Part shown: piece by piece, positions 12,061-63,220 of the stretch
How the letters are laid out: the number at the start of each line of letters is the position of its first letter
Numbering within the stretch: position 1 is the first letter of the stretch
Source of the DNA: Patescibacteria group bacterium
Lineage (GTDB): Bacteria; Patescibacteriota; Doudnabacteria; UBA920
Assembly: GCA_023484515.1 (NCBI GenBank)
Contig: JAMDAY010000028.1
Location: forward strand, 2,544 to 66,543
DNA length: 64,000 nt
Reading direction: 5' to 3'
Program-made: the position numbers and the translations under genes
Notes under the pieces: model-generated
Told to the model about the DNA's origin: nothing
The model's input: only the letters and a program-made list of their open reading frames with translations
Database searches by the model: none

Positions 12061-12085
12061 TCCCCTTTTACGGGGATTTTATTTT
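12061..12085 (+). terminator. short GC hairpin ccccttttacgggg followed by a T-run
   Basis: Lies directly after the hydrolase gene. Confidence 0.35.
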
Positions 12086-12256
12086 GGCTAAAGATAAAAA
12101 CCTTTTTACATAAGCGGGCAAGCTGTAAGTCCTAATGGCAAAAAAAGTCTTATACGTATGGAAAACAGAATGGTTTGGGCAGGCTGCGGCGGTTGTAAAT
12201 TAAAACCGTTTTTTAAAACGTCCGGAAACTAATAAATTAAAGGTCGAAACAATTTA

Positions 12257-45483: not shown

Positions 45484-46713
45484 ATGAATAAACTCCAAAT
45501 TTCCCAACGCGCGCAAAAGATAATTGCTTCTCCCATAAGGAAGTTTTTGCCATTGATGCTGGAAGCGGAAAAACGGGGGATTAAAATATATAAGATCAAC
45601 GTGGGCGACCCGGATTTATTGCCACCGCCGGAATTTTACCGGGAAATAAAACGGCATTTGGCCGGCAATTTGGGTTATGCTCCTTCTCCCGGCATTGCCA
45701 GCCATGTGGCAGCCTGGCAGGAATATTACAGTCAAATGGGCGTAAATTTGCAGCCGGGAAATATTATCCCCACGCAGGGCGGCGCAGAAGCTATTTTACT
45801 GGCCATGCAGGCCGTGGCAGACCAGGGCGACGAGGTGGTAGTGTTTGAGCCTTTGTATGTCAGTTACCGGTCCTTTGCCGCCATGGCCGGCATTAAGCTG
45901 GTGCCCGTAACGTTGTCTATTGCCAACAACTTTAGCCTGCCTTCCGTTTCAGTTTTGAAAAATAAAATCACTAGCAGAACAAAGGCAATTGTAATTGTGA
46001 ATCCTGACAACCCCACAGGCAAGCTATGGAGCAAAAAAGAACTGGACCAGATAATCCAGGTTGCCAAAAAACATAACCTCTATATTATTTCCGACGAAAC
46101 TTACCGCGAAATTAGGTTTGACGGCAAAAAATTTTCCTGTCTTTTGACGCGCAAGGATGCCGCGGAAAATATAATATTATGCGACAGCGTGTCTAAGCGT
46201 TTTTCCATGCCCGGCGCGCGCATTGGCTGCGTGGCCAGTTTTAACAAAGAGATAATGTCAAGCGTGCTCAAGTTTGCCCAGGCCAGGCTTTCCGCCGGAA
46301 CTTTGGAACAGTTGGCCCTAGTTCCGCTGATAAAAAATAGCCGCTCCTATACCCGGAAAGTCCAAAAAGAATATTTGCGGCGGCGCAACGCGGTGGCAGC
46401 GGGCTTAAAAAATATTCCCGGCGCCGTATTCCGGCCGGCCCAGGGCGCATTTTACCAGGCCGTAAAACTGCCGGTTAAGTCCGCTGAGGATTTCGTAAAA
46501 TTTATGATCAGCGAATTCCAATACAAAGGCGCTACCGTCATGGTCACGCCCATGAAAGATTTCTACCTGACGCTGGGTTTAGGCGAAAATGAAGTCCGCA
46601 TAGCTTATGTGCTGAATGTTAAAGATTTGTCCGCAGCCATGGATGTTTTGCACAGAGGACTAATAGCATATAAAACGAGTCCCTTGAAGAGACCCTTCAA
46701 GGGGACCACATGA
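45484..46713 (+). CDS. class I/II PLP-dependent aminotransferase
   Basis: SKRFSMPGARIG (PLP-lysine region). About 409 aa. The last codons run into the REP hairpin at 46681-46704. Confidence 0.75.
   Translation: MNKLQISQRAQKIIASPIRKFLPLMLEAEKRGIKIYKINVGDPDLLPPPEFYREIKRHLAGNLGYAPSPGIASHVAAWQEYYSQMGVNLQPGNIIPTQGGAEAILLAMQAVADQGDEVVVFEPLYVSYRSFAAMAGIKLVPVTLSIANNFSLPSVSVLKNKITSRTKAIVIVNPDNPTGKLWSKKELDQIIQVAKKHNLYIISDETYREIRFDGKKFSCLLTRKDAAENIILCDSVSKRFSMPGARIGCVASFNKEIMSSVLKFAQARLSAGTLEQLALVPLIKNSRSYTRKVQKEYLRRRNAVAAGLKNIPGAVFRPAQGAFYQAVKLPVKSAEDFVKFMISEFQYKGATVMVTPMKDFYLTLGLGENEVRIAYVLNVKDLSAAMDVLHRGLIAYKTSPLKRPFKGTT
46681..46704. repeat. REP hairpin cccttgaagagacccttcaagggg (upstream flank of RAYT-2, within the aminotransferase 3' end)
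   Basis: Arms cccttgaag / cttcaaggg. Confidence 0.8.
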
Positions 46714-47390
46714 AATATAGAGATTACAAGGTGTTTGCACCGGGAGGATATTATCATGTATATAATCGCGGTGTAGCTAAAACTGATATCTTTTTAGACG
46801 ATGACGACCGCAAATTTTTTCTATTTCGCCTTAAAGAATATTTGTTTCCCTTGAAGGGTCTCTTCAAGGGAAAAAGGCAGAATTTACCTGGAGGGGCGGC
46901 AATTGTGGCCGAAACCCATACCCCTTATAAAAGAAAAATGTTGCCTCCAGACAGTTTTTCCTTGCTTTGTTATTGCCTTATGCCTAACCACTTCCATTTT
47001 CTTATTAGGCAGGAAGGTGTGTTGGAGGTCCGGAAGCTGTTGGCTAAAGTTTGCACCAGTTATTCTAAATTTTTTAACCAAAAATATGGAAGAGTTGGAA
47101 GCTTATTTCAGGATGCCTTTAAAGCCATTTCTGTAGAAAATGATCCGCAACTCCTTTGGGTTTCATCATACATCCATAATAATCCAAAAACAGCTAACCT
47201 TGTCGATAACCTAACTGATTATCCTTGGAGCAGCTATTTGGATTATATCGGCAAGCGGCAGGGAACTTTGTGCGACAAGGAATTTATTTTAAAGATGATC
47301 GGGGGCGCGGAAAAGTATAAAAGATTTGCGGAAGACAGCTTTGCGAAAATAAAGGAAAGGAAAGATTGTGAAGGATTATTTTTAGATTAA
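46710..47390 (+). CDS. REP-associated tyrosine transposase (RAYT), copy 2
   Basis: YHVYNRG and YCLMPNHFHFLI motifs. The 3' ~100 bp are about 95% identical in DNA to RAYT-1. An internal REP copy at 46848-46870 encodes LFPLKGLFKGK. Confidence 0.8.
   Translation: MKYRDYKVFAPGGYYHVYNRGVAKTDIFLDDDDRKFFLFRLKEYLFPLKGLFKGKRQNLPGGAAIVAETHTPYKRKMLPPDSFSLLCYCLMPNHFHFLIRQEGVLEVRKLLAKVCTSYSKFFNQKYGRVGSLFQDAFKAISVENDPQLLWVSSYIHNNPKTANLVDNLTDYPWSSYLDYIGKRQGTLCDKEFILKMIGGAEKYKRFAEDSFAKIKERKDCEGLFLD
46848..46870. repeat. REP hairpin cccttgaagggtctcttcaaggg inside the RAYT-2 ORF
   Basis: Same arms as the flanking copies. Confidence 0.8.
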
Positions 47391-54219: not shown

Positions 54220-54436
54220 GGGGTCTTTCCAATCTTTATCCCACATAAATTTTCCCTATGCCGGAAGGCGCGCCTTCCGGCATAGGGAAGCATTGCTGTC
54301 TTGCGCAAATTCCGAGGCGTAACTCCCCACAACTCCCCAAAGCCTTGATAAATTAAGGGAAATATGTTAAACTGACAAAGCTGTTGAGGTTGCGGAAATT
54401 TTTAAATTTTAAATTTTCAATCTTTAAATTTATCTT

Positions 54437-54511
54437 GGCGCATTCGTCTAGTGGCTAGGACATCAGGTTTTCAGCCTGAGAACAAGGGTTCGATTCCCTT
54501 ATGCGCTACCA
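54437..54511 (+). tRNA. tRNA-Glu (anticodon UUC), CCA encoded
   Basis: GGCGCAU-UC-GUCUAGUGGCUAGGAC...UCAGGUUUUCAGCCUGA...AAGGGUUCGAUUCCCUU-AUGCGCU-A-CCA. Confidence 0.85.
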
Positions 54512-54666
54512 CGAACATTCAAAGCGCCCGAAAGGGTGTTTTTGATTTGGTTTTATTGGTGCAAAATAAGTTTTCCAAAATTTTGGTATGATGGAAGTAC
54601 TTATCAAATAAGCGTATAATTAAAGTAAATTAGTTTTCAATCATCTTTGGTATCCAACATCACAAC

Positions 54667-55533
54667 ATGACCCACAAAACTCCACTTGATAATTTAATAA
54701 GACAAATCCATTTTGATATATGGTCAAATCATAAAAGTGATGAACGTTTAGTATTTTGTAATGAACAACTTCGTTCTTTAAAAGTAACTTATAATCTGAT
54801 GAGGCAGTTTGATTTCAGTAGGGTCAAAGAAAAGATCAGAAATGAAGGTAAAAATACCCTATTAGTTAAAATGAATGATCTAGCGGATCAAAAAATAGTA
54901 TCGGCCTATTTAGGATTTTACTTTTTTGTAATGTTACTGAAAAAGTTTGCTGACAATTTAGATAAAAGGAAAATTGTAAGTTTGGATGAATTTCCAAATT
55001 ATCTTTTTGTTAAACTGTTTAGAAATAAAGTAACTCAACATTGGGATGAATACACAAAAACTATGGGTCTTGGCAGATTAGCCCATCTTTCCGAGTGTCC
55101 CATATCAGTTCCCCTTATACATGAAATAACTATTTCTGCGGAACGCATAAAATTTTTAGTAAATAAAATAATAGAAACCTTTCAATCTTATGGTATTTCA
55201 ATAAGTAAAGATAAATTTCCATCAGAACCAGGTATAAAGCATTTTCTTTTCATTTCAAAATCTAATTATCATAGCACTTTATACACTTCTTTAAGTATAT
55301 TAGCTATGAAAAATAAAGGTAAAATACCAGATTCAATTACAGAATCTTTATTTGAATTGGGTTTCCCTTTACCCATGGCTAATGTAGATGAATATTTAGA
55401 AATTTTGGCACAATTATTAGAAGGTAAATTAAAATCATTAGGATCACTTAGTGACAAAATCAATACCAGAAAAGCAATTTACCATCATGGTTTCCTTGGT
55501 TTTTACAAATCAGATGGTGATATAGTCGTATAG
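54667..55533 (+). CDS. AT-rich orphan protein (288 aa), island cargo next to the tRNA
   Basis: About 30% GC against ~48% in the surroundings. No motif recognised. Confidence 0.5.
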   Translation: MTHKTPLDNLIRQIHFDIWSNHKSDERLVFCNEQLRSLKVTYNLMRQFDFSRVKEKIRNEGKNTLLVKMNDLADQKIVSAYLGFYFFVMLLKKFADNLDKRKIVSLDEFPNYLFVKLFRNKVTQHWDEYTKTMGLGRLAHLSECPISVPLIHEITISAERIKFLVNKIIETFQSYGISISKDKFPSEPGIKHFLFISKSNYHSTLYTSLSILAMKNKGKIPDSITESLFELGFPLPMANVDEYLEILAQLLEGKLKSLGSLSDKINTRKAIYHHGFLGFYKSDGDIVV

Positions 55534-55808
55534 TTCTTTTACTAACACTAAATAAGTTTTCCAGTCATTCAGACGACCTCTACCACGAGTTTCCGTTATC
55601 GAGGGATGCTGAAGCCTCAAGTTGCTTAGAAAAGTTTTAGACACTGATGCTTAAAAAAATAAATTTGATAGTGTGAACTCGCAAAATCACGACTTAAAAT
55701 AGGTCGTGATTTTGTATTAAAACAAAAAAGCGTACATCCCGGGCAATGTTTCCAGGCGGACGCTTTTTGCTTTTTGCTAAGATTTTCCCTCCTTGATTAT
55801 AAACGTGT

Positions 55809-56033
55809 TTACTGCACCTTGAGCTTTTGCTGTTCCCAAGCCTCAAAGAACAATATGATACAGCCGACGGAAACCTTGCTGCTACTGCCTAACTCAGGTC
55901 CGTCGAGTTCATCCAGAACTGCTCGCCGTACGCCAGGGTCAAGATACATCCGCTCCGTAACCTGGTTAGGCTGCAGATTATGGTGTTTGGCAACCACGAG
56001 AATCACTTTTTCTCGTATGGTTTCTCTTTGCAT
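55809..56033 (-). CDS. small hypothetical protein (weak carrier-protein-like helical pattern)
   Basis: Lies 5 nt downstream of the DUF62 gene on the same strand. Confidence 0.3.
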   Translation of the reverse strand: MQRETIREKVILVVAKHHNLQPNQVTERMYLDPGVRRAVLDELDGPELGSSSKVSVGCIILFFEAWEQQKLKVQ

Positions 56034-56038
56034 TTCCG

Positions 56039-56917
56039 TTACTCCTCTATGACAACCTTGGCTCCGATCGGCGGGTAGCCAAATAAAGCCTGGGCGCTGG
56101 AACCAACGACAACCAGATAGTGAACCGGCTGACCGTTAAGCTTGAGGCTACCTGTGGTAAGCGTAGGTTCTCCGGTCTGGCCGGCGAAAATACCGTCAAC
56201 GTGACGAAGCCGGGCAATCTTTTCGCCGACGCGAAACACGCGATATTCGCCAAGGGCAGGAACCCACCCCTCAGATCCGATTGAAACGACGTAGAGGTTT
56301 CCGTGTTCATCCCAATCGGCGACGAAAATTCCCTGTTCCGGCTCGGGAACTATTAACGGTTTGGTCGTAAGTTCGATATTTTTATGATCCCGCGCGCCCA
56401 GAACTTTGGCTAGCGTCGGCACCATGACTTCCATTGAGCGGAAAGGCGTGGTCATTCCGGAAGTATCGGTGACCAAATAGGACTCGCGAATGCGTGACTG
56501 AATGAAGTAAAAATTCAAGCCCGCATTCGGACCGACTACCCACACATTATTGTCGAGCAGTAATGCGTAAATTTCTTCCCCTTCGCCTTTGCGGCCATCT
56601 CCCCTCAATTTTTTTCCGTTTTCGGTGCCATGTCTAGGCGCGGCATTGTCGAGGATGCCGATTTTCTCGTCAATGGTGAAGAACGGAGCATCGTCCCTCT
56701 CTTCAATGGGACCGAAATGGTCGATTGTGGAGAGTGCATGGGCTGCGGTGGTGAACCCTGCATGCAAAGTGTTCATACTTTGAGTTCCGAAAAAAGTCAA
56801 TTGTGGCTCTTTCGGCCAAAAACTGCGCCGGGCAGCGATTTCGTAACGGCCGCGATCGCTTCCGCCGCAGTCCGTTACCAAAACCAAATGAAAGCTTCTT
56901 AGAATGTTTTTCGACAT
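56039..56917 (-). CDS. SAM hydroxide adenosyltransferase / fluorinase-chlorinase family (DUF62) protein
   Basis: N-terminus LVLVTDCGGSDRGRY follows the family L(V/T)DFG..D pattern. The PEPEQ segment resembles fluorinase PEQPEP. About 290 aa. Confidence 0.5.
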   Translation of the reverse strand: MSKNILRSFHLVLVTDCGGSDRGRYEIAARRSFWPKEPQLTFFGTQSMNTLHAGFTTAAHALSTIDHFGPIEERDDAPFFTIDEKIGILDNAAPRHGTENGKKLRGDGRKGEGEEIYALLLDNNVWVVGPNAGLNFYFIQSRIRESYLVTDTSGMTTPFRSMEVMVPTLAKVLGARDHKNIELTTKPLIVPEPEQGIFVADWDEHGNLYVVSIGSEGWVPALGEYRVFRVGEKIARLRHVDGIFAGQTGEPTLTTGSLKLNGQPVHYLVVVGSSAQALFGYPPIGAKVVIEE

Positions 56918-57147
56918 TGGGTCCTCCTGTTATTTTTGTTCTGCGTTAGTTCGCATGGCTGGCGGGATTGCCAGAACCACGACCTCCGCACAAAACAAAG
57001 CCGCCTCAATCTTTTCGTGAAAGAGGCGGTGTCAGGAATGAATATTATCATACCCAAGACGGCCGCTTCCACAGAGGCTCGGCCATCATCATATTTATAT
57101 TTTTTGGAATAAATTGCATAAATATCTATTACAGGCTGTAAATAAAA

Positions 57148-57477
57148 TTAATCTCCTTTGCTGTCTAAAACCTTTGGTTCAAACATTAAAACGTATGCTC
57201 CTTTTTCGCTTTTTGGACAATGCCTGACACCCTTTGGGACAACCGCCATTTTACCCTCTTGTAAGATTATAGCGGGTTGATTTTCTAACTGTATAACAAT
57301 AGTGCCTTTTACCACATAGAAAAATTCATCTTCATCTCTATGTTCGTGCCAATGATATTCTCCTTGCATCAAAGCCAAACGGACTACCTGATTATTAACT
57401 ATTGCGATGTTAATCAGAAACCACGGCTTACCGTTAATTTTTTTGATTTGTTCTTCTAAGTTGACTGGCTCAATCAT
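57148..57477 (-). CDS. cupin-domain protein
   Basis: HWHEHRDEDEFFYVVKG...VPKGVRH is the two-motif cupin signature. Confidence 0.65.
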   Translation of the reverse strand: MIEPVNLEEQIKKINGKPWFLINIAIVNNQVVRLALMQGEYHWHEHRDEDEFFYVVKGTIVIQLENQPAIILQEGKMAVVPKGVRHCPKSEKGAYVLMFEPKVLDSKGD

Positions 57478-57680
57478 AAAGTTAAGTTTAATAATAAAAG
57501 CCCTCTTGCAAGGGCTTTGAAATGTTGAAGAAAATTTCGGGTAACTTAAATCCAGCCCTTGCGATTAAGGTTCATCAGTTGCATCATCATTTCGGTTTTG
57601 GCAAATTTAAGCTGGTTCATATGCTTCAATTATACGCTATCTAAGAAAAGTGTCAAGGATACGAGTGTCAAGGATACGAG

Positions 57681-59015
57681 TTATTTTCCTAAAACTACTA
57701 TTTTATTTTCCAGTATTAATTTGCTTTTTAGGCTACTCAGCAATTCTCGTTTTTCAATCGCACTTCCTGACTTTAGTAAATATTTGGCGTAAGATTTGGG
57801 GTCTATGGCTGGCGGATTCTTGACATCAACTTTTTCTCCGCCCAACATCCCCTGAAATTTATTGTACCGTTCAAATTCCTGGTCAATCTGATGCCGCACG
57901 CTCAGCCCGTTTACATCCATTTGGTCTATTAAATTTATTAGCTGCGCGATTAATTCTTCTTCCCGCAAATACCCGCCCTTGCATTTTAAGTCCCTCGCCC
58001 GGGTACAGCCGTAGTAAATATACCTAGCGGTCGTGCCATCTTTGAGCTGCTTAAGCTTGTCCTGGGCGGTTATGCCAGAACCGCAATGACCGCAGGTGAT
58101 CAGTTTGATAAAAGCAAATTCCTTAATATTATATGGATGACCTTCTTTGTTCAGTTGCTCCTGGACTTTTTGGAATAACTCCTGGGTTATGATGGGAGTA
58201 AATTTTCCAGTATACCATTGGCCGCTCTTTTCCGGCCATTCGTGGACGCCGTAGTACATAGTGCGGCGTAAAATTCGGTAAATGTTTCCTAGCGCCAGGT
58301 GTTTGCCGTTTTTGGTCGTAAATTTTATTTTGTCTTTCAGCCAGAAGTATAGTTCCCTGCCACTGCTGTGCTGGTAAGCCACTCGCTCAAACATTTTTTT
58401 AATAATTGGCGCTCGCTTGGGGTCGATTATTAAACTTCCTTTGCGATCGGAACGATTTTCGTTAAGATAGCCAGTCGGGGCCTGCCCCGGCCACATGCCC
58501 ATTTCTACTCTGGCTCGCAGTCCCCGTTTGACGTTTACGCTCTTGTTATCGTTCTCCAATTTGGCCTGGCTACACAAAATCATTAGCAGGAATTTTTCAC
58601 TTGGCGAGTTGGTAAATTTTTGGCCATAGGTACGGATTTCCAGCAGTAGCTTTTGGTCCATCAAATCTACCAGACTGCCTAAATCCCCGGCATTGCGGGA
58701 AAGCCTGTCCGGCGCCCAGGTCAGGATAGCATTAAATTTCCCCGACCTGATTTCCGAAACAATCTCGTTAAAAGTTTCCCGTCCACCTGATGCTTTAGCC
58801 GAGTGGCTTTCTCGTTTTGTCTCTACTATATTAAGTCCCTCCCGCTCCGCAATCTGCAGCATTTCTTTAATTTGGCTGTCTATAGAAAGGATCTGTTTTT
58901 CCTCCTGCTCCGTGCTTTTACGGGCATAGAGGCAGTACTTAATTGGCACGGCCGCTGCGGTCGGGTTGGCCGCTTTAGTCCTCTCCAAAACTCTCTGTAA
59001 TACTTGATCATTCAT
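57681..59015 (-). CDS. large serine recombinase (resolvase catalytic domain, recombinase domain, zinc ribbon)
   Basis: CLYARKSTEQEE (catalytic Ser), ...DRLSRN and C-terminal CGHCG...YYGCTRARDLKCK are present. Confidence 0.85.
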   Translation of the reverse strand: MNDQVLQRVLERTKAANPTAAAVPIKYCLYARKSTEQEEKQILSIDSQIKEMLQIAEREGLNIVETKRESHSAKASGGRETFNEIVSEIRSGKFNAILTWAPDRLSRNAGDLGSLVDLMDQKLLLEIRTYGQKFTNSPSEKFLLMILCSQAKLENDNKSVNVKRGLRARVEMGMWPGQAPTGYLNENRSDRKGSLIIDPKRAPIIKKMFERVAYQHSSGRELYFWLKDKIKFTTKNGKHLALGNIYRILRRTMYYGVHEWPEKSGQWYTGKFTPIITQELFQKVQEQLNKEGHPYNIKEFAFIKLITCGHCGSGITAQDKLKQLKDGTTARYIYYGCTRARDLKCKGGYLREEELIAQLINLIDQMDVNGLSVRHQIDQEFERYNKFQGMLGGEKVDVKNPPAIDPKSYAKYLLKSGSAIEKRELLSSLKSKLILENKIVVLGK

Positions 59016-59166
59016 GGCTTATGTTATTAATGATTACAACACATTAATGACGCGACCCTGGTGAGTAGTCTAGACGCAGAAGTAGATAAACTGTAGGTAA
59101 CCAACATTTCCAAAAACCCCACAAAAATGCTAAGATTAGTGGGTACTTTACTTCTTAAATCGCCTT

Positions 59167-61104: not shown

Positions 61105-61305
61105 ATGGCTATAGACTGGTCCAAAATCTATAAAAAATACAAAGGTCTCTGGGTGGCATTAAAGGATGATGAGCAGACCGTGGTTGCCAGTGGCAAGACC
61201 GCCAAGCAGGCTTTGGATATGGCAAAAGAAAAAGGTTTTAAGGAACCCATTTTGCACCGCGTACCGACCGAGGTTATGCCGTATGTCGGCAGCGCTTGGC
61301 TATGA
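61105..61305 (+). CDS. small DUF5678-like protein, partner of the retropepsin-like gene
   Basis: 66 aa. Overlaps the next ORF by 10 nt. Confidence 0.4.
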   Translation: MAIDWSKIYKKYKGLWVALKDDEQTVVASGKTAKQALDMAKEKGFKEPILHRVPTEVMPYVGSAWL

Positions 61306-61730
61306 CCATAAAGTTCAAATATAAAAAGATCCCCTTAACCGTAAAAGCCCCGCTTTTCGGTTTTTCTATTTTACGGCCAATTATACCGGTTCAGTTATTT
61401 GGCAATGGAGAAAAAATCAGCTACGAAGTCCTGCTGGATTCCGGAGCAGACACTTGCGTGTTTGACGGAAGCATTGGCGAGCTGTTAGGGCTTGATGTTA
61501 CCGCGGGAACGCCCGTGCAATTTAGCGGGGTGCAAAATGCAGCGGCTGCCAAAGCTTATTTGCATACGGTAGACTTAAGTTTAGGCGGACACAAACTATC
61601 CATTCCGGCCATTTTTTCTTTTGACCTCTCCGATAGAGGTTATGGGATTTTAGGACAAAAAGGATTTTTTGATTTGTTCTGTGTTAAATTTGATTATCAA
61701 AAAGAAGAAATTGAACTTAAGCAAAAATAA
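61296..61730 (+). CDS. retropepsin-like (clan AA) aspartic protease
   Basis: VLLDSGADTCVF contains the DSGA active-site motif. About 144 aa. Confidence 0.5.
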   Translation: MAMTIKFKYKKIPLTVKAPLFGFSILRPIIPVQLFGNGEKISYEVLLDSGADTCVFDGSIGELLGLDVTAGTPVQFSGVQNAAAAKAYLHTVDLSLGGHKLSIPAIFSFDLSDRGYGILGQKGFFDLFCVKFDYQKEEIELKQK

Positions 61731-62331: not shown

Positions 62332-62719
62332 AAAAAGCGGCTAACCCGGCCGCCGGTTGTGTCTACTAAACGGGGTACGCATCACCATAGACTGTCTCAT
62401 ACTGTCCCATTTTCCGGTTTTAGACCAGCGACGCGGGTGCTTCGAGTAGCTACGGAAAAGACACCCCAAAACCCTTTGAAAGACTGCCCAAGACTTGTTT
62501 ATACACGCCAGTGCACTACCAAATTAAAATAGCCAAAATTTTGGCTATTTTAATTTGTTCCGAGCGAAGGCCACATAGCGGGAGGAGAAGAGAGGTGTGT
62601 AATTAAAGGGCGTGCAAAATAGAAATTTTATATTTGGCTCCTCTTTATGAGTTGGGTTTGGTTTTTGTTTTTTAAGAATAAAGGAAGTTTTGCGTTTTAT
62701 TATATTGTCGGGAAATAGT

Positions 62720-62748
62720 TTGACATACAAAATATTTGAGAGTAGAAT
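62720..62748 (+). promoter_or_regulatory. sigma70 promoter TTGACA-17-TAGAAT upstream of marR
   Basis: Read directly from the sequence. Confidence 0.5.
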
Positions 62749-62770
62749 GAACTTACTTAAGCTGATAAAT

Positions 62771-63220
62771 ATGCCCCAAGAGATAAAACGTTCCATTTTA
62801 AGCCATTTGCACCATGTGGGCCGGTATATGCGGCAGCAGGGGGAAATGGGCATGGGCGTGGAGCATCTCACCATGCACCAGGTCCAGGCCTTGTTTTTCG
62901 TAAAAAAACGCCAGCCCGTGCGGATGCGCGATTTGGCGGAAAATTTGCGCATTTCCCCGGGTTCTACTTCGCTGTTTTCCGACCGCCTGGTCGAATCCGG
63001 CTGGCTATCGCGCTGCCAGGACAAAAACGACCGGCGCGCAGTTTGCCTGAAGCTTTCATTGGCGGCGGAAAAAAAACTGGACCGGATGTTCAAAGAGAGG
63101 TTTGAGCGCGTCGGCCGCATGCTGGACGCGCTAAGTCCCAAGGACCAGCGCGAACTTGACCGCATATTGGGGCAGCTTGAGGATTTTGCATCCCGCAATA
63201 TCGCAAAGGCGAGAGAATAA
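62771..63220 (+). CDS. MarR-family transcriptional regulator
   Basis: LTMHQVQALFFVKKRQPVRMRDLAENLRISPGSTSLFSDRLVESGWLSRCQDKNDRRAVCL. The start was chosen downstream of the predicted promoter. Confidence 0.65.
   Translation: MPQEIKRSILSHLHHVGRYMRQQGEMGMGVEHLTMHQVQALFFVKKRQPVRMRDLAENLRISPGSTSLFSDRLVESGWLSRCQDKNDRRAVCLKLSLAAEKKLDRMFKERFERVGRMLDALSPKDQRELDRILGQLEDFASRNIAKARE

Follow-up and report, generated by a model that had tools for sequence, protein, structure and literature searches.

Predicted methionine-codon attenuators ahead of a cupin and a divergent SAM-enzyme homolog in a mosaic interval beside tRNA-Glu of a Patescibacteria genome

Does a phage-type integrase close to a tRNA gene and a patch of AT-rich DNA mark a genomic island, and if not, what are the genes between them for? 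The question is raised by positions 54437-59015 of a 64,000-nt stretch from a Patescibacteria metagenome-assembled genome (MAG), hereafter the window, in whose coordinates all positions are given. A first-pass annotation had read this interval as a single island inserted beside tRNA-Glu by a large serine recombinase and carrying a small halogenase-type cassette. The features that it listed, the tRNA-Glu and five open reading frames (ORFs), are all found where it placed them. Our analysis, for which loci labelled L002-L041 were fetched from other genomes and contigs for comparison with the window (WIN), favors a different reading, with a probability of about 0.62: the interval is a mosaic of three unrelated parts, namely a resident operon induced by methionine starvation, a variable slot after tRNA-Glu and a solo integrase. 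The operon would run on the minus strand over ~55.8-57.66 kb as a promoter, a methionine-rich (Met) leader with its terminator, a cupin gene, a second Met leader with its terminator, the gene of a 292-aa homolog of S-adenosylmethionine (SAM) enzymes and possibly a 74-aa ORF.

The 292-aa protein (56039-56917, minus strand) has no match in Pfam or NCBIfam even at E <= 10 and none in PHROG or PADLOC; the search against PF01887 that had been proposed as a check on its assignment to the DUF62 family was negative at the same threshold. No PDB sequence was matched by phmmer, nor by a profile of 49 clade sequences. The family comprises 105 clusters at 49-84% identity, almost all from Patescibacteria-labelled MAGs and none with a Pfam domain. 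An AlphaFold model built on the family alignment (pLDDT 92.6, pTM 0.91) gave 35 significant Foldseek matches in the PDB, all of them DUF62 SAM hydrolases, SalL/ClA chlorinases or FlA fluorinases (E 4e-13 to 3e-8, TM 0.6-0.75, 11-16% identity), and the next match has an E value of 0.05. An exhaustive HMM search of 1.84 billion representatives recovered the clade itself and then about 100 distant proteins of 260-300 aa, ten of which were tested: eight match PF20257, two of these PF01887 too (E <= 0.001), with PF20257 scores mostly just over the cut-off and PF01887 scores just under it. A bridging profile that includes these distant proteins reaches, over full length, MJ1651, an (R)-SAM hydrolase (5e-13), Thermotoga 2zbu (9e-9) and PH0463 (6e-6). 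Predicted fold and bridging profiles place the 292-aa protein, as a divergent member, in the SAM hydroxide adenosyltransferase / halogenase superfamily. The DUF62 call was right at this level of fold and superfamily; at the level of the family it does not hold, as neither PF01887 nor PF20257 is matched and the catalytic triad is absent. The nearest outgroup gene, P0112 (within L040 3644-5906), which scores on PF20257, has no Met leader; a HIT-family gene stands just upstream of it, and it lies ~100 nt downstream of an S-adenosylhomocysteine hydrolase gene on the same strand. Because it directly follows the latter gene, it ties the wider group to the metabolism of SAM and S-adenosylhomocysteine.

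In the DUF62 hydrolases a water-activating His-Arg-Asp triad is strictly conserved, formed by Asp68, Arg75 and His127 in PH0463 (PMC10491745). The triad was mapped by HMMER alignment to PH0463, a MAFFT --add alignment being 2 residues off at TFHGRD and misaligned at DDFGN. Asp68 corresponds to Ala93 of the 292-aa protein, an Ala in 15/15 clade sequences used and in 29 of 38 intermediates, and His127 to Arg160, which is invariant in the clade, while Arg75 falls in an inserted charged loop (residues 97-115, lower pLDDT) without a conserved counterpart. Also invariant in the clade are D16 (T-D16-C17-G), the DxxGN motif (D203, G206, N207) and Ser161. The last of these aligns with the Gly of the canonical TFHGRD motif, at a position putatively equivalent to that of the halide-binding Ser158 of fluorinase. 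Because the triad is replaced while D16 and DxxGN stay invariant, the alignment marks the clade as a distinct branch, in which the putative nucleoside-binding scaffold is kept and the predicted nucleophile site is remodelled.

Upstream of the gene, the loci share a run of Met codons. In the alignment of the upstream regions a conserved ATGATGATG opens, or lies inside, a short ORF that is followed by a GC-rich hairpin and a T-run; this string occurs in 12 of 21 upstream regions, versus 0.013 expected. Of the 21 loci, 15 have upstream an ORF of 14-31 codons in which some 7-residue window holds at least 3 Met, compared with 2.8% of 5000 random 320-nt segments from the same loci, a background in which the leaders themselves are included. 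With L041, a deeper clade member that carries MKIMISKIMAMRMQ... and a terminator, the count of Met leaders becomes 16/22. In the window, the leader ORF MQFIPKNINMMMAEPLWKRPSWV (MQFIPKNIN-MMM-AEPLWKRPSWV; 57048-57119, minus strand, Met run at 57084-57092) is followed by an intrinsic terminator, CCGCCTC ... GAGGCGG and a T-run (56991-57028, minus strand), ahead of the 292-aa gene. Leader peptides elsewhere read MQRNLFVAG-MMMAMMM-RSE... (L012), MTSTRRAASTG-MMMSMMM-KTS... (L017) and MIVSKHMNRVGS-MRMM-RSP... (L022).

The hairpins behind these leaders are placed alike and differ in sequence. In 13 of 21 loci (WIN, L006-L009, L011-L015, L017, L022, L023) the best hairpin separates the Met run from the gene start, L041 having one more, and the hairpins of the 13 loci are unrelated in sequence. 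In L018 and L019 the start of the hairpin coincides with the end of the leader ORF or slightly precedes it, and the hairpin is weak or displaced in L016, L020, L024 and L025, of which L016 and L024 show post-leader hairpins when the scan is anchored at the stop codon. Two Met leaders stand in tandem between the cupin and the SAM-enzyme homolog of L024. Across the 64-kb window and L002-L029, units of Met leader and terminator occur essentially only before the cupin and the 292-aa gene, and the window holds just two Met leaders.

The second of these leaders precedes the cupin gene (57148-57477, minus strand), the first gene of the operon. Its 109-aa product was rightly annotated as a cupin: it matches Cupin_2 at 3.6e-12, is of the metal type with a His/His/Glu/His-type motif, and has the uncharacterised cupins 3d82 and 2i45 as its nearest solved structures. 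A perfect sigma-70-type promoter, TTGACA-16 nt-TATAAT with 12/12 matches (57629-57656, minus strand), has its predicted start site ~2 nt ahead of the ATG of the leader ORF MNQLKFAKTEMMMQLMNLNRKGWI (MNQLKFAKTE-MMM-QLM-NLNRKGWI; 57546-57620, minus strand), which is followed by the terminator AAAGCCCTT gcaa GAGGGCTTT and a T-run (57497-57518, minus strand). In L011 and in the closest relative, L024, a cupin ortholog (63% and 43% identity, respectively) directly precedes the SAM-enzyme homolog. L011 also has a similar promoter and a homologous leader, MNRTEFVKTGMMEMMNP (MNRTEFVKTG-MMEMM-NP), so that a Met leader precedes the cupin in two of three loci. The adjacency of the two genes in three genomes (window, L011, L024), both with Met leaders, supports that cupin and 292-aa gene form a functional unit, and the cupin presumably acts in the same methionine-related route as the enzyme. 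The proposed cassette survives to this extent; genes of a halogenated-metabolite pathway are missing, and the small protein counted as its third member is not carrier-like.

Known leader-peptide attenuators respond to Trp, His, Phe, Thr, Leu and Ile/Val. Judged from their sequence, the units described above have the anatomy of such a classical attenuator with Met as the regulatory codon, in many species and before two different genes, and we infer that the operon is under methionine-sensing attenuation. Folding in silico of the two window leaders is consistent with this prediction: with a ribosome constrained to the Met run, UGGAAGCGGCC in the last codons of the leader of the 292-aa gene pairs with the 5' arm of the terminator to give an antiterminator of -20.4 kcal/mol, and in constrained folding of the cupin leader the 3' part (GCAAGGGCU) pairs with the 5' arm of its terminator, at -16.4 kcal/mol. 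When charged Met-tRNA is scarce, the ribosome would stall on the Met codons and leave the 3' segment of the leader available to the 5' arm of the terminator; the two would pair, and transcription would read through. When methionine is plentiful, the ribosome would reach the leader stop and cover this segment, and the terminator would form. No Met-rich leader-peptide attenuator is described in the literature searched, an absence that is not proof of novelty. Rfam has no family that matches the leaders, or the recombinase-upstream element and intergenic repeats described below, its asX2 and miRNA matches being chance hits to hairpins.

Each characterised reaction of the superfamily displaces L-methionine from C5' of SAM (PMC10491745), and because of this we read the 292-aa protein as an enzyme that would free methionine from SAM, or from a close sulfonium analogue, in methionine shortage. 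The likeliest reaction is an attack at C5' of SAM, which would yield L-methionine together with adenosine or an adenosine bearing another 5' substituent. As nucleophile, given the missing triad and the invariant Arg95, Arg160 and Ser161, either water activated in some other manner or an anion may serve. By this reaction the operon would supply methionine during starvation, in a bacterium that is probably unable to make it. One may go further and suppose that a hitherto undescribed Met-sensing attenuator controls a new superfamily branch with an Ala/Arg/Ser pocket, which cleaves SAM, possibly derived from the host organism, by a non-hydroxide nucleophile such as phosphate or halide and so gives methionine and a usable adenosine derivative to an organism that makes neither, with the cupin in the same route of methionine acquisition. 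We regard this fuller scenario as speculative and, taken as a whole, unlikely.

Two other explanations were weighed. The 292-aa protein might be a canonical DUF62 enzyme, a housekeeping (R)-SAM hydrolase clearing the inactive sulfonium epimer, with upstream Met-rich ORFs that are incidental or serve another role. Its fold and detectable homology are indeed common with (R)-SAM hydrolases such as MJ1651, and the gene stands in housekeeping contexts. However, the triad that is strictly conserved in these hydrolases (PMC10491745) is replaced by the invariant Ala93 and Arg160, the association with Met-run leaders and terminators is far over background, a repair enzyme has no obvious need of methionine control, and the physiological role of DUF62 proteins is itself disputed (PMC12120602), all of which makes this explanation quite unlikely. 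Alternatively, the upstream elements might not sense the ribosome at all, and be either an RNA that binds a protein or a metabolite, for example a riboswitch not yet described, or terminators that act constitutively and have ATG runs by chance. Conservation at the RNA level of the sequence just past the Met run (LWKRP / UGGAAGCGGCC) in one subclade, and leader ORFs without a clear Shine-Dalgarno sequence, would fit such elements. They would hardly account for Met runs that are always in frame, in ORFs of 14-31 codons ending just before the terminator, for an architecture kept among subclades whose sequences are otherwise unrelated (MMMAMMM, MRMM, MMEMM), or for its presence before an unrelated gene, the cupin; nor does any Rfam family match. 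We consider elements of this kind very unlikely, and return to methionine-sensing attenuation of a resident operon.

That the operon is resident is supported by where the 292-aa gene is found elsewhere. Homologs of the 292-aa gene occur in 18 species-representative genomes and further contigs among housekeeping genes, with HisRS, AspRS, DnaE, ribosomal protein L11, GatB, Tmk, PEP carboxylase, PfkB and Vut_1 as neighbours and with no related recombinase within the fetched flanks; the sole recombinase near any of them, in L017 at a distance of 5 kb, is unrelated (26% identity). Clustering of all ORFs from 20 loci revealed no conserved operon partner of the gene except the cupin (three genomes). 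A Vut_1 transporter lies within a few kb of the homolog in 4 of 20 loci. No 5'-haloadenosine or natural-product cluster was seen, the neighbours in 22 loci being housekeeping or unrelated genes.

Base composition agrees with these contexts. Relative to host genes (GC 48.3 +/- 3.6%), the 292-aa gene is host-like (GC 52%, z = +1.0), as are the 74-aa ORF (49%, z = +0.2) and the recombinase (45%, z = -0.9); only the 288-aa orphan gene next to the tRNA (29%, z = -5.4) and the cupin (37%, z = -3.2) deviate, and not the whole of the supposed island. Across loci, the GC of the 292-aa gene tracks that of its flanks (r = 0.61). The L011 ortholog of the cupin has a GC of 35% in a 48% locus, and because it is equally low, we take the low GC as a property of the gene and not as a sign of recent arrival. 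Host-like GC and recombinase-free contexts elsewhere support that the 292-aa gene is resident and not island cargo. The 74-aa ORF (55809-56033, minus strand) begins 5 nt past the stop of the 292-aa gene. Despite its GC it has a poor codon score, it has no homolog in the fetched loci and no match in Pfam, PHROG or PADLOC, and it may either close the operon as its last gene or be no gene at all. It had been described as a carrier-like small protein, of which no signature was found; both a truncated gene and a carrier protein were considered for it and rejected, given that there is no homolog and no PP-binding motif.

The 444-aa recombinase (57681-59015, minus strand) is, as annotated, a serine recombinase with a zinc ribbon. 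It is intact, with Resolvase PF00239 (5e-19), Recombinase PF07508 (2e-11) and Zn_ribbon_recom PF13408 (4e-8) over its full length, a match to the PHROG 95 integrase at 3e-60, and the YxRxS catalytic motif present as YARKST. Its family counts at least 8000 matches, of which the best 120 share at least 62% identity over nearly full length across many Patescibacteria lineages. Variable accessory DNA adjoins its close relatives: AbiTii, ThsB and phage genes in L026, GmrSD, HNH, AAA and methylase genes in L027, and APH, zeta-toxin and nucleotidyltransferase genes in L029. Others, at 59-64% identity, are found on IMG/VR viral contigs, in three of four cases at the contig end, and the gene order in L026 and the viral L032 is ParB-methyltransferase, small terminase, large terminase, recombinase. 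DNA homology between the recombinase loci stops at the stop codon and reaches ~100-140 nt upstream of the gene, where a conserved cis element, GTTAyCnAC ... CTrGACT ... GCGTCAT (59016-59116, minus strand), is shared by the cellular and viral loci L026, L027, L029 and L031-L034. It would be either a promoter/operator or an arm of an attachment site. The abundance and conservation of the family, together with an upstream element that is found even on viral contigs, suggest a widespread phage lineage or strong constraint.

Because the terminase and phage genes of relatives, and the upstream homology, lie on the 5' side of the recombinase, the body of the element would be expected on that side, which in the window is to the right, above 59.0 kb. 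Pfam, PHROG and PADLOC scans found no phage gene there within the window. The window recombinase is probably a solo phage-type integrase without terminase partners, most simply a prophage remnant whose body once lay above 59.0 kb. On its other side, the cupin/enzyme operon starts no more than 25 nt from the recombinase stop codon. Directly past this stop, exactly where the homology to other recombinase loci ends, lies an exact 15-nt tandem duplication (AGTGTCAAGGATACG twice; 57649-57678, plus strand) that contains, and duplicates, the -35 box of the cupin promoter.

At the opposite end of the interval, an intact tRNA-Glu (UUC) with encoded CCA (54437-54511, plus strand; ARAGORN, and Rfam tRNA at 62 bits) is followed by a terminator-like hairpin (54521-54542, plus strand; terminator scan) and a conserved element of ~115 nt with a TATAAT box (54528-54641, plus strand), ~85% identical to L026 618-506. 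In L026 the copy comes after a stretch that resembles a tRNA 3' end and stands directly before an AbiTii gene, and the homology stops ~25 nt ahead of either start codon, that of the AbiTii gene and that of the window's 288-aa orphan (54667-55533, plus strand). The orphan was confirmed as such: its sole match among 5.8 billion proteins is itself, and it has no Pfam, NCBIfam, PHROG or PADLOC match. As a chance ORF it would have a probability of about 2.5e-11 at its composition; its single-sequence AlphaFold model (pLDDT 36) is unusable, and a relationship to AbiTii was rejected (E = 5). At 29% GC it is the one clearly foreign-looking gene of the interval. It is flanked at 54551-54577 and 55537-55563 by direct repeats of 27 nt, imperfect but for an exact core of 14 nt (AAATAAGTTTTCCA), which could be a cassette-like boundary or chance in AT-rich DNA.

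An intergenic repeat element found by blastn (55577-55716, plus strand), ending in a hairpin formed by an inverted repeat (55682-55714), has copies between accessory genes of recombinase loci in related genomes, at 12080-12214 and 12980-13024 in L027, twice in L028 and at 9890-9930 in L029. A tRNA fragment was considered for its first part (55577-55621) and dismissed, since only the string GGTAGAG matches and no arm can be folded. The ~115-nt element and the orphan have the look of a small variable slot after tRNA-Glu in which a promoter element is shared, the only part of the interval that behaves like recently exchanged DNA; the promoter-bearing element would drive the orphan in the window and the AbiTii gene in the related genome. 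At L026 ~860-693 (minus strand), a sequence ending GGGTCGATTCCCCTATGGGCTACCA matches 20 of the last 22 nt of the window tRNA-Glu and is called by neither ARAGORN nor Rfam. It lies between phage-like genes and the AbiTii gene, and could be an attachment-site remnant or an unusual tRNA-like RNA.

How, then, does the model of one island inserted beside tRNA-Glu by the recombinase, with the 74-aa ORF, the DUF62-type gene and the cupin as its halogenase-type cassette, stand against these data? An intact recombinase, relatives that flank variable accessory genes, AT-rich DNA from directly past the tRNA, codon scores that are all under the host mean over 54.6-59.0 kb and the break of an independent assembly near 54260 are what it would lead one to expect. 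Yet the AT-richness reported after the tRNA extends over 54.4-55.6 kb (GC 28-32%), and at the level of genes low GC is confined to the orphan and the cupin, so that the composition is a mosaic in which the 292-aa gene is host-like. The tRNA 3' end, of which direct repeats had been expected, has no repeat anywhere in the window: only the tRNA itself matches at <= 3 mismatches, loose blastn gives chance 8-11-mers only, and a repeat finder shows no convincing flanking repeat. Serine recombinases need only very short cores, and the missing repeat alone is not decisive. The 292-aa gene and its leader, however, recur in recombinase-free housekeeping contexts in about 20 genomes, the cargo of related recombinases lies 5' of them, a side that in the window faces away from the supposed island, and there are neither halogenated-metabolite pathway genes nor a carrier-protein motif. 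Syntenic genomes hold the same genes without a recombinase, which is part of what the first-pass annotation had itself named as evidence against its model. We consider a single island highly improbable, and the claim that these genes are its cargo is not upheld.

The reading of the interval as a mosaic with a methionine-controlled operon has its own difficulties. A clear Met leader is missing in 6 of 22 loci, Met codons cannot vary synonymously, and translation of the leaders is deduced only from frame, length and position. The initiator codon needs methionine too, which complicates the sensing of this amino acid. The nucleophile-activating residues of the 292-aa protein differ from those of all characterised members, and its substrate might not be SAM. 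As to residency, the 292-aa gene, at a codon score of +0.008, falls at the low end of the host range (mean 0.108, sd 0.049), and the cupin has a GC of 37%, though its L011 ortholog is equally low. An empty-site comparator is missing: a metagenome scan with the tRNA-side MarR gene returned only relatives of 59-68% identity, with no tRNA-Glu downstream. An ancient co-mobilisation of the operon with the recombinase is, strictly speaking, still conceivable. Finally, the independent Logan assembly breaks at ~54260 and 62549, which could reflect strain variability of a larger segment.

The surroundings of the interval are of two kinds. On the left, ordinary chromosomal DNA carries rpoB, rpoC, a class I aminoacyl-tRNA synthetase, TsaD, a Vut_1 transporter, a response regulator and a MarR regulator, and an IS200-like Y1 transposase gene (46710-47390, plus strand; GC 39%, z = -2.7) sits between aminotransferase and aminoacyl-tRNA synthetase genes. 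To the right of the recombinase follow a SEC-C-motif protein, a DUF5678 gene that overlaps a retropepsin-like Asp_protease_2 gene (61105-61730, plus strand; weak PADLOC PDC-M52B match), and a TPR protein; the overlapping pair may be a two-gene accessory or defence-like module. A candidate conserved noncoding RNA (ncRNA) of ~130 nt is seen at 62388-62556 (plus strand) in the window and at ~1030-870 (minus strand) in L026. Both copies contain GACTGTCyCAT..., CCAAAAnCCTTT and ACGCCAGTGCACTACCA and are followed by terminator hairpins unlike in sequence; Rfam has no family for it and gives chance miRNA-type hairpin matches only, and the Logan contig ends in its window terminator. A second MarR-type regulator follows at 62690-63220 (plus strand), where a 217-aa ORF on the opposite strand (62545-63198) is probably spurious.

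With the expression of this clade apparently wired to Met codons, one may formulate the testable hypothesis that methionine release is the point of a DUF62-type reaction. The leaders may represent a new class of attenuator, as no methionine-specific one is present in Rfam or in the literature searched. In Patescibacteria, which are uncultured symbionts of reduced metabolism, regulatory logic is seldom legible from sequence; here it points to methionine/SAM scavenging as a controlled process. The locus also advises caution in the calling of islands, since an integrase, a tRNA and an AT-rich patch do not together make an island; here they appear to be three independent features.

Compared with known systems, each part of the locus shows both kinship and departure. 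The integrase agrees with phage-type large serine recombinases (PHROG 95; weak NCBIfam matches to CcrB and XisF) in its three domains and YxRxS motif and in having relatives at the end of phage-like genomes beside terminase genes. Unlike them, it stands without phage partners, no attachment site or crossover point could be identified around it, and its family is unusually conserved, the best 120 matches being at least 62% identical.

With the DUF62 proteins (PH0463, 1WU8/2WR8; MJ1651, 2F4N; Thermotoga, 2ZBU) the 292-aa protein has in common the two-domain fold, homology through bridging profiles, the N-terminal Asp of the TDFG motif (here TDCG) and the DxxGN motif. The clade differs from them by its 11-16% identity, by the lack of a PF01887/PF20257 match and of the His-Arg-Asp triad, by an extra charged loop of ~15-20 residues (97-115), by Cys17, Arg24, Tyr25 and Arg95, which are invariant or nearly so, and by the predicted methionine-type attenuation of its gene. 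The halogenases FlA, SalL and ClA have the same fold, and the hydrolase triad is absent from them as well (PMC10491745). Unlike theirs, the 292-aa gene has housekeeping neighbours, with no biosynthetic cluster and no 5'-haloadenosine-processing genes downstream, and its methionine regulation would point to the methionine product, and not the adenosyl product, as the one that matters.

As to regulation, in S-box and other SAM riboswitches and in Met T-boxes it is the RNA structure itself that senses SAM or uncharged tRNA. They resemble the present leaders in their output, which is termination control of methionine- or SAM-related genes. Rfam detects none of them at the leaders, where sensing would instead go via the translation of Met codons. 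The closest parallel is with the classical attenuators trpL, hisL, pheL, thrL, leuL and ilvL. The differences are that methionine would be sensed, that the hosts are Patescibacteria, that the targets are a SAM-enzyme homolog and a cupin and no biosynthetic operon, and that the cupin leader in the window seems nearly leaderless. As in the classical systems, a short ORF with a run of codons for one amino acid is followed by an intrinsic terminator, the predicted antiterminator segment overlaps the 3' part of this ORF, and the architecture is kept across species while the sequence varies.

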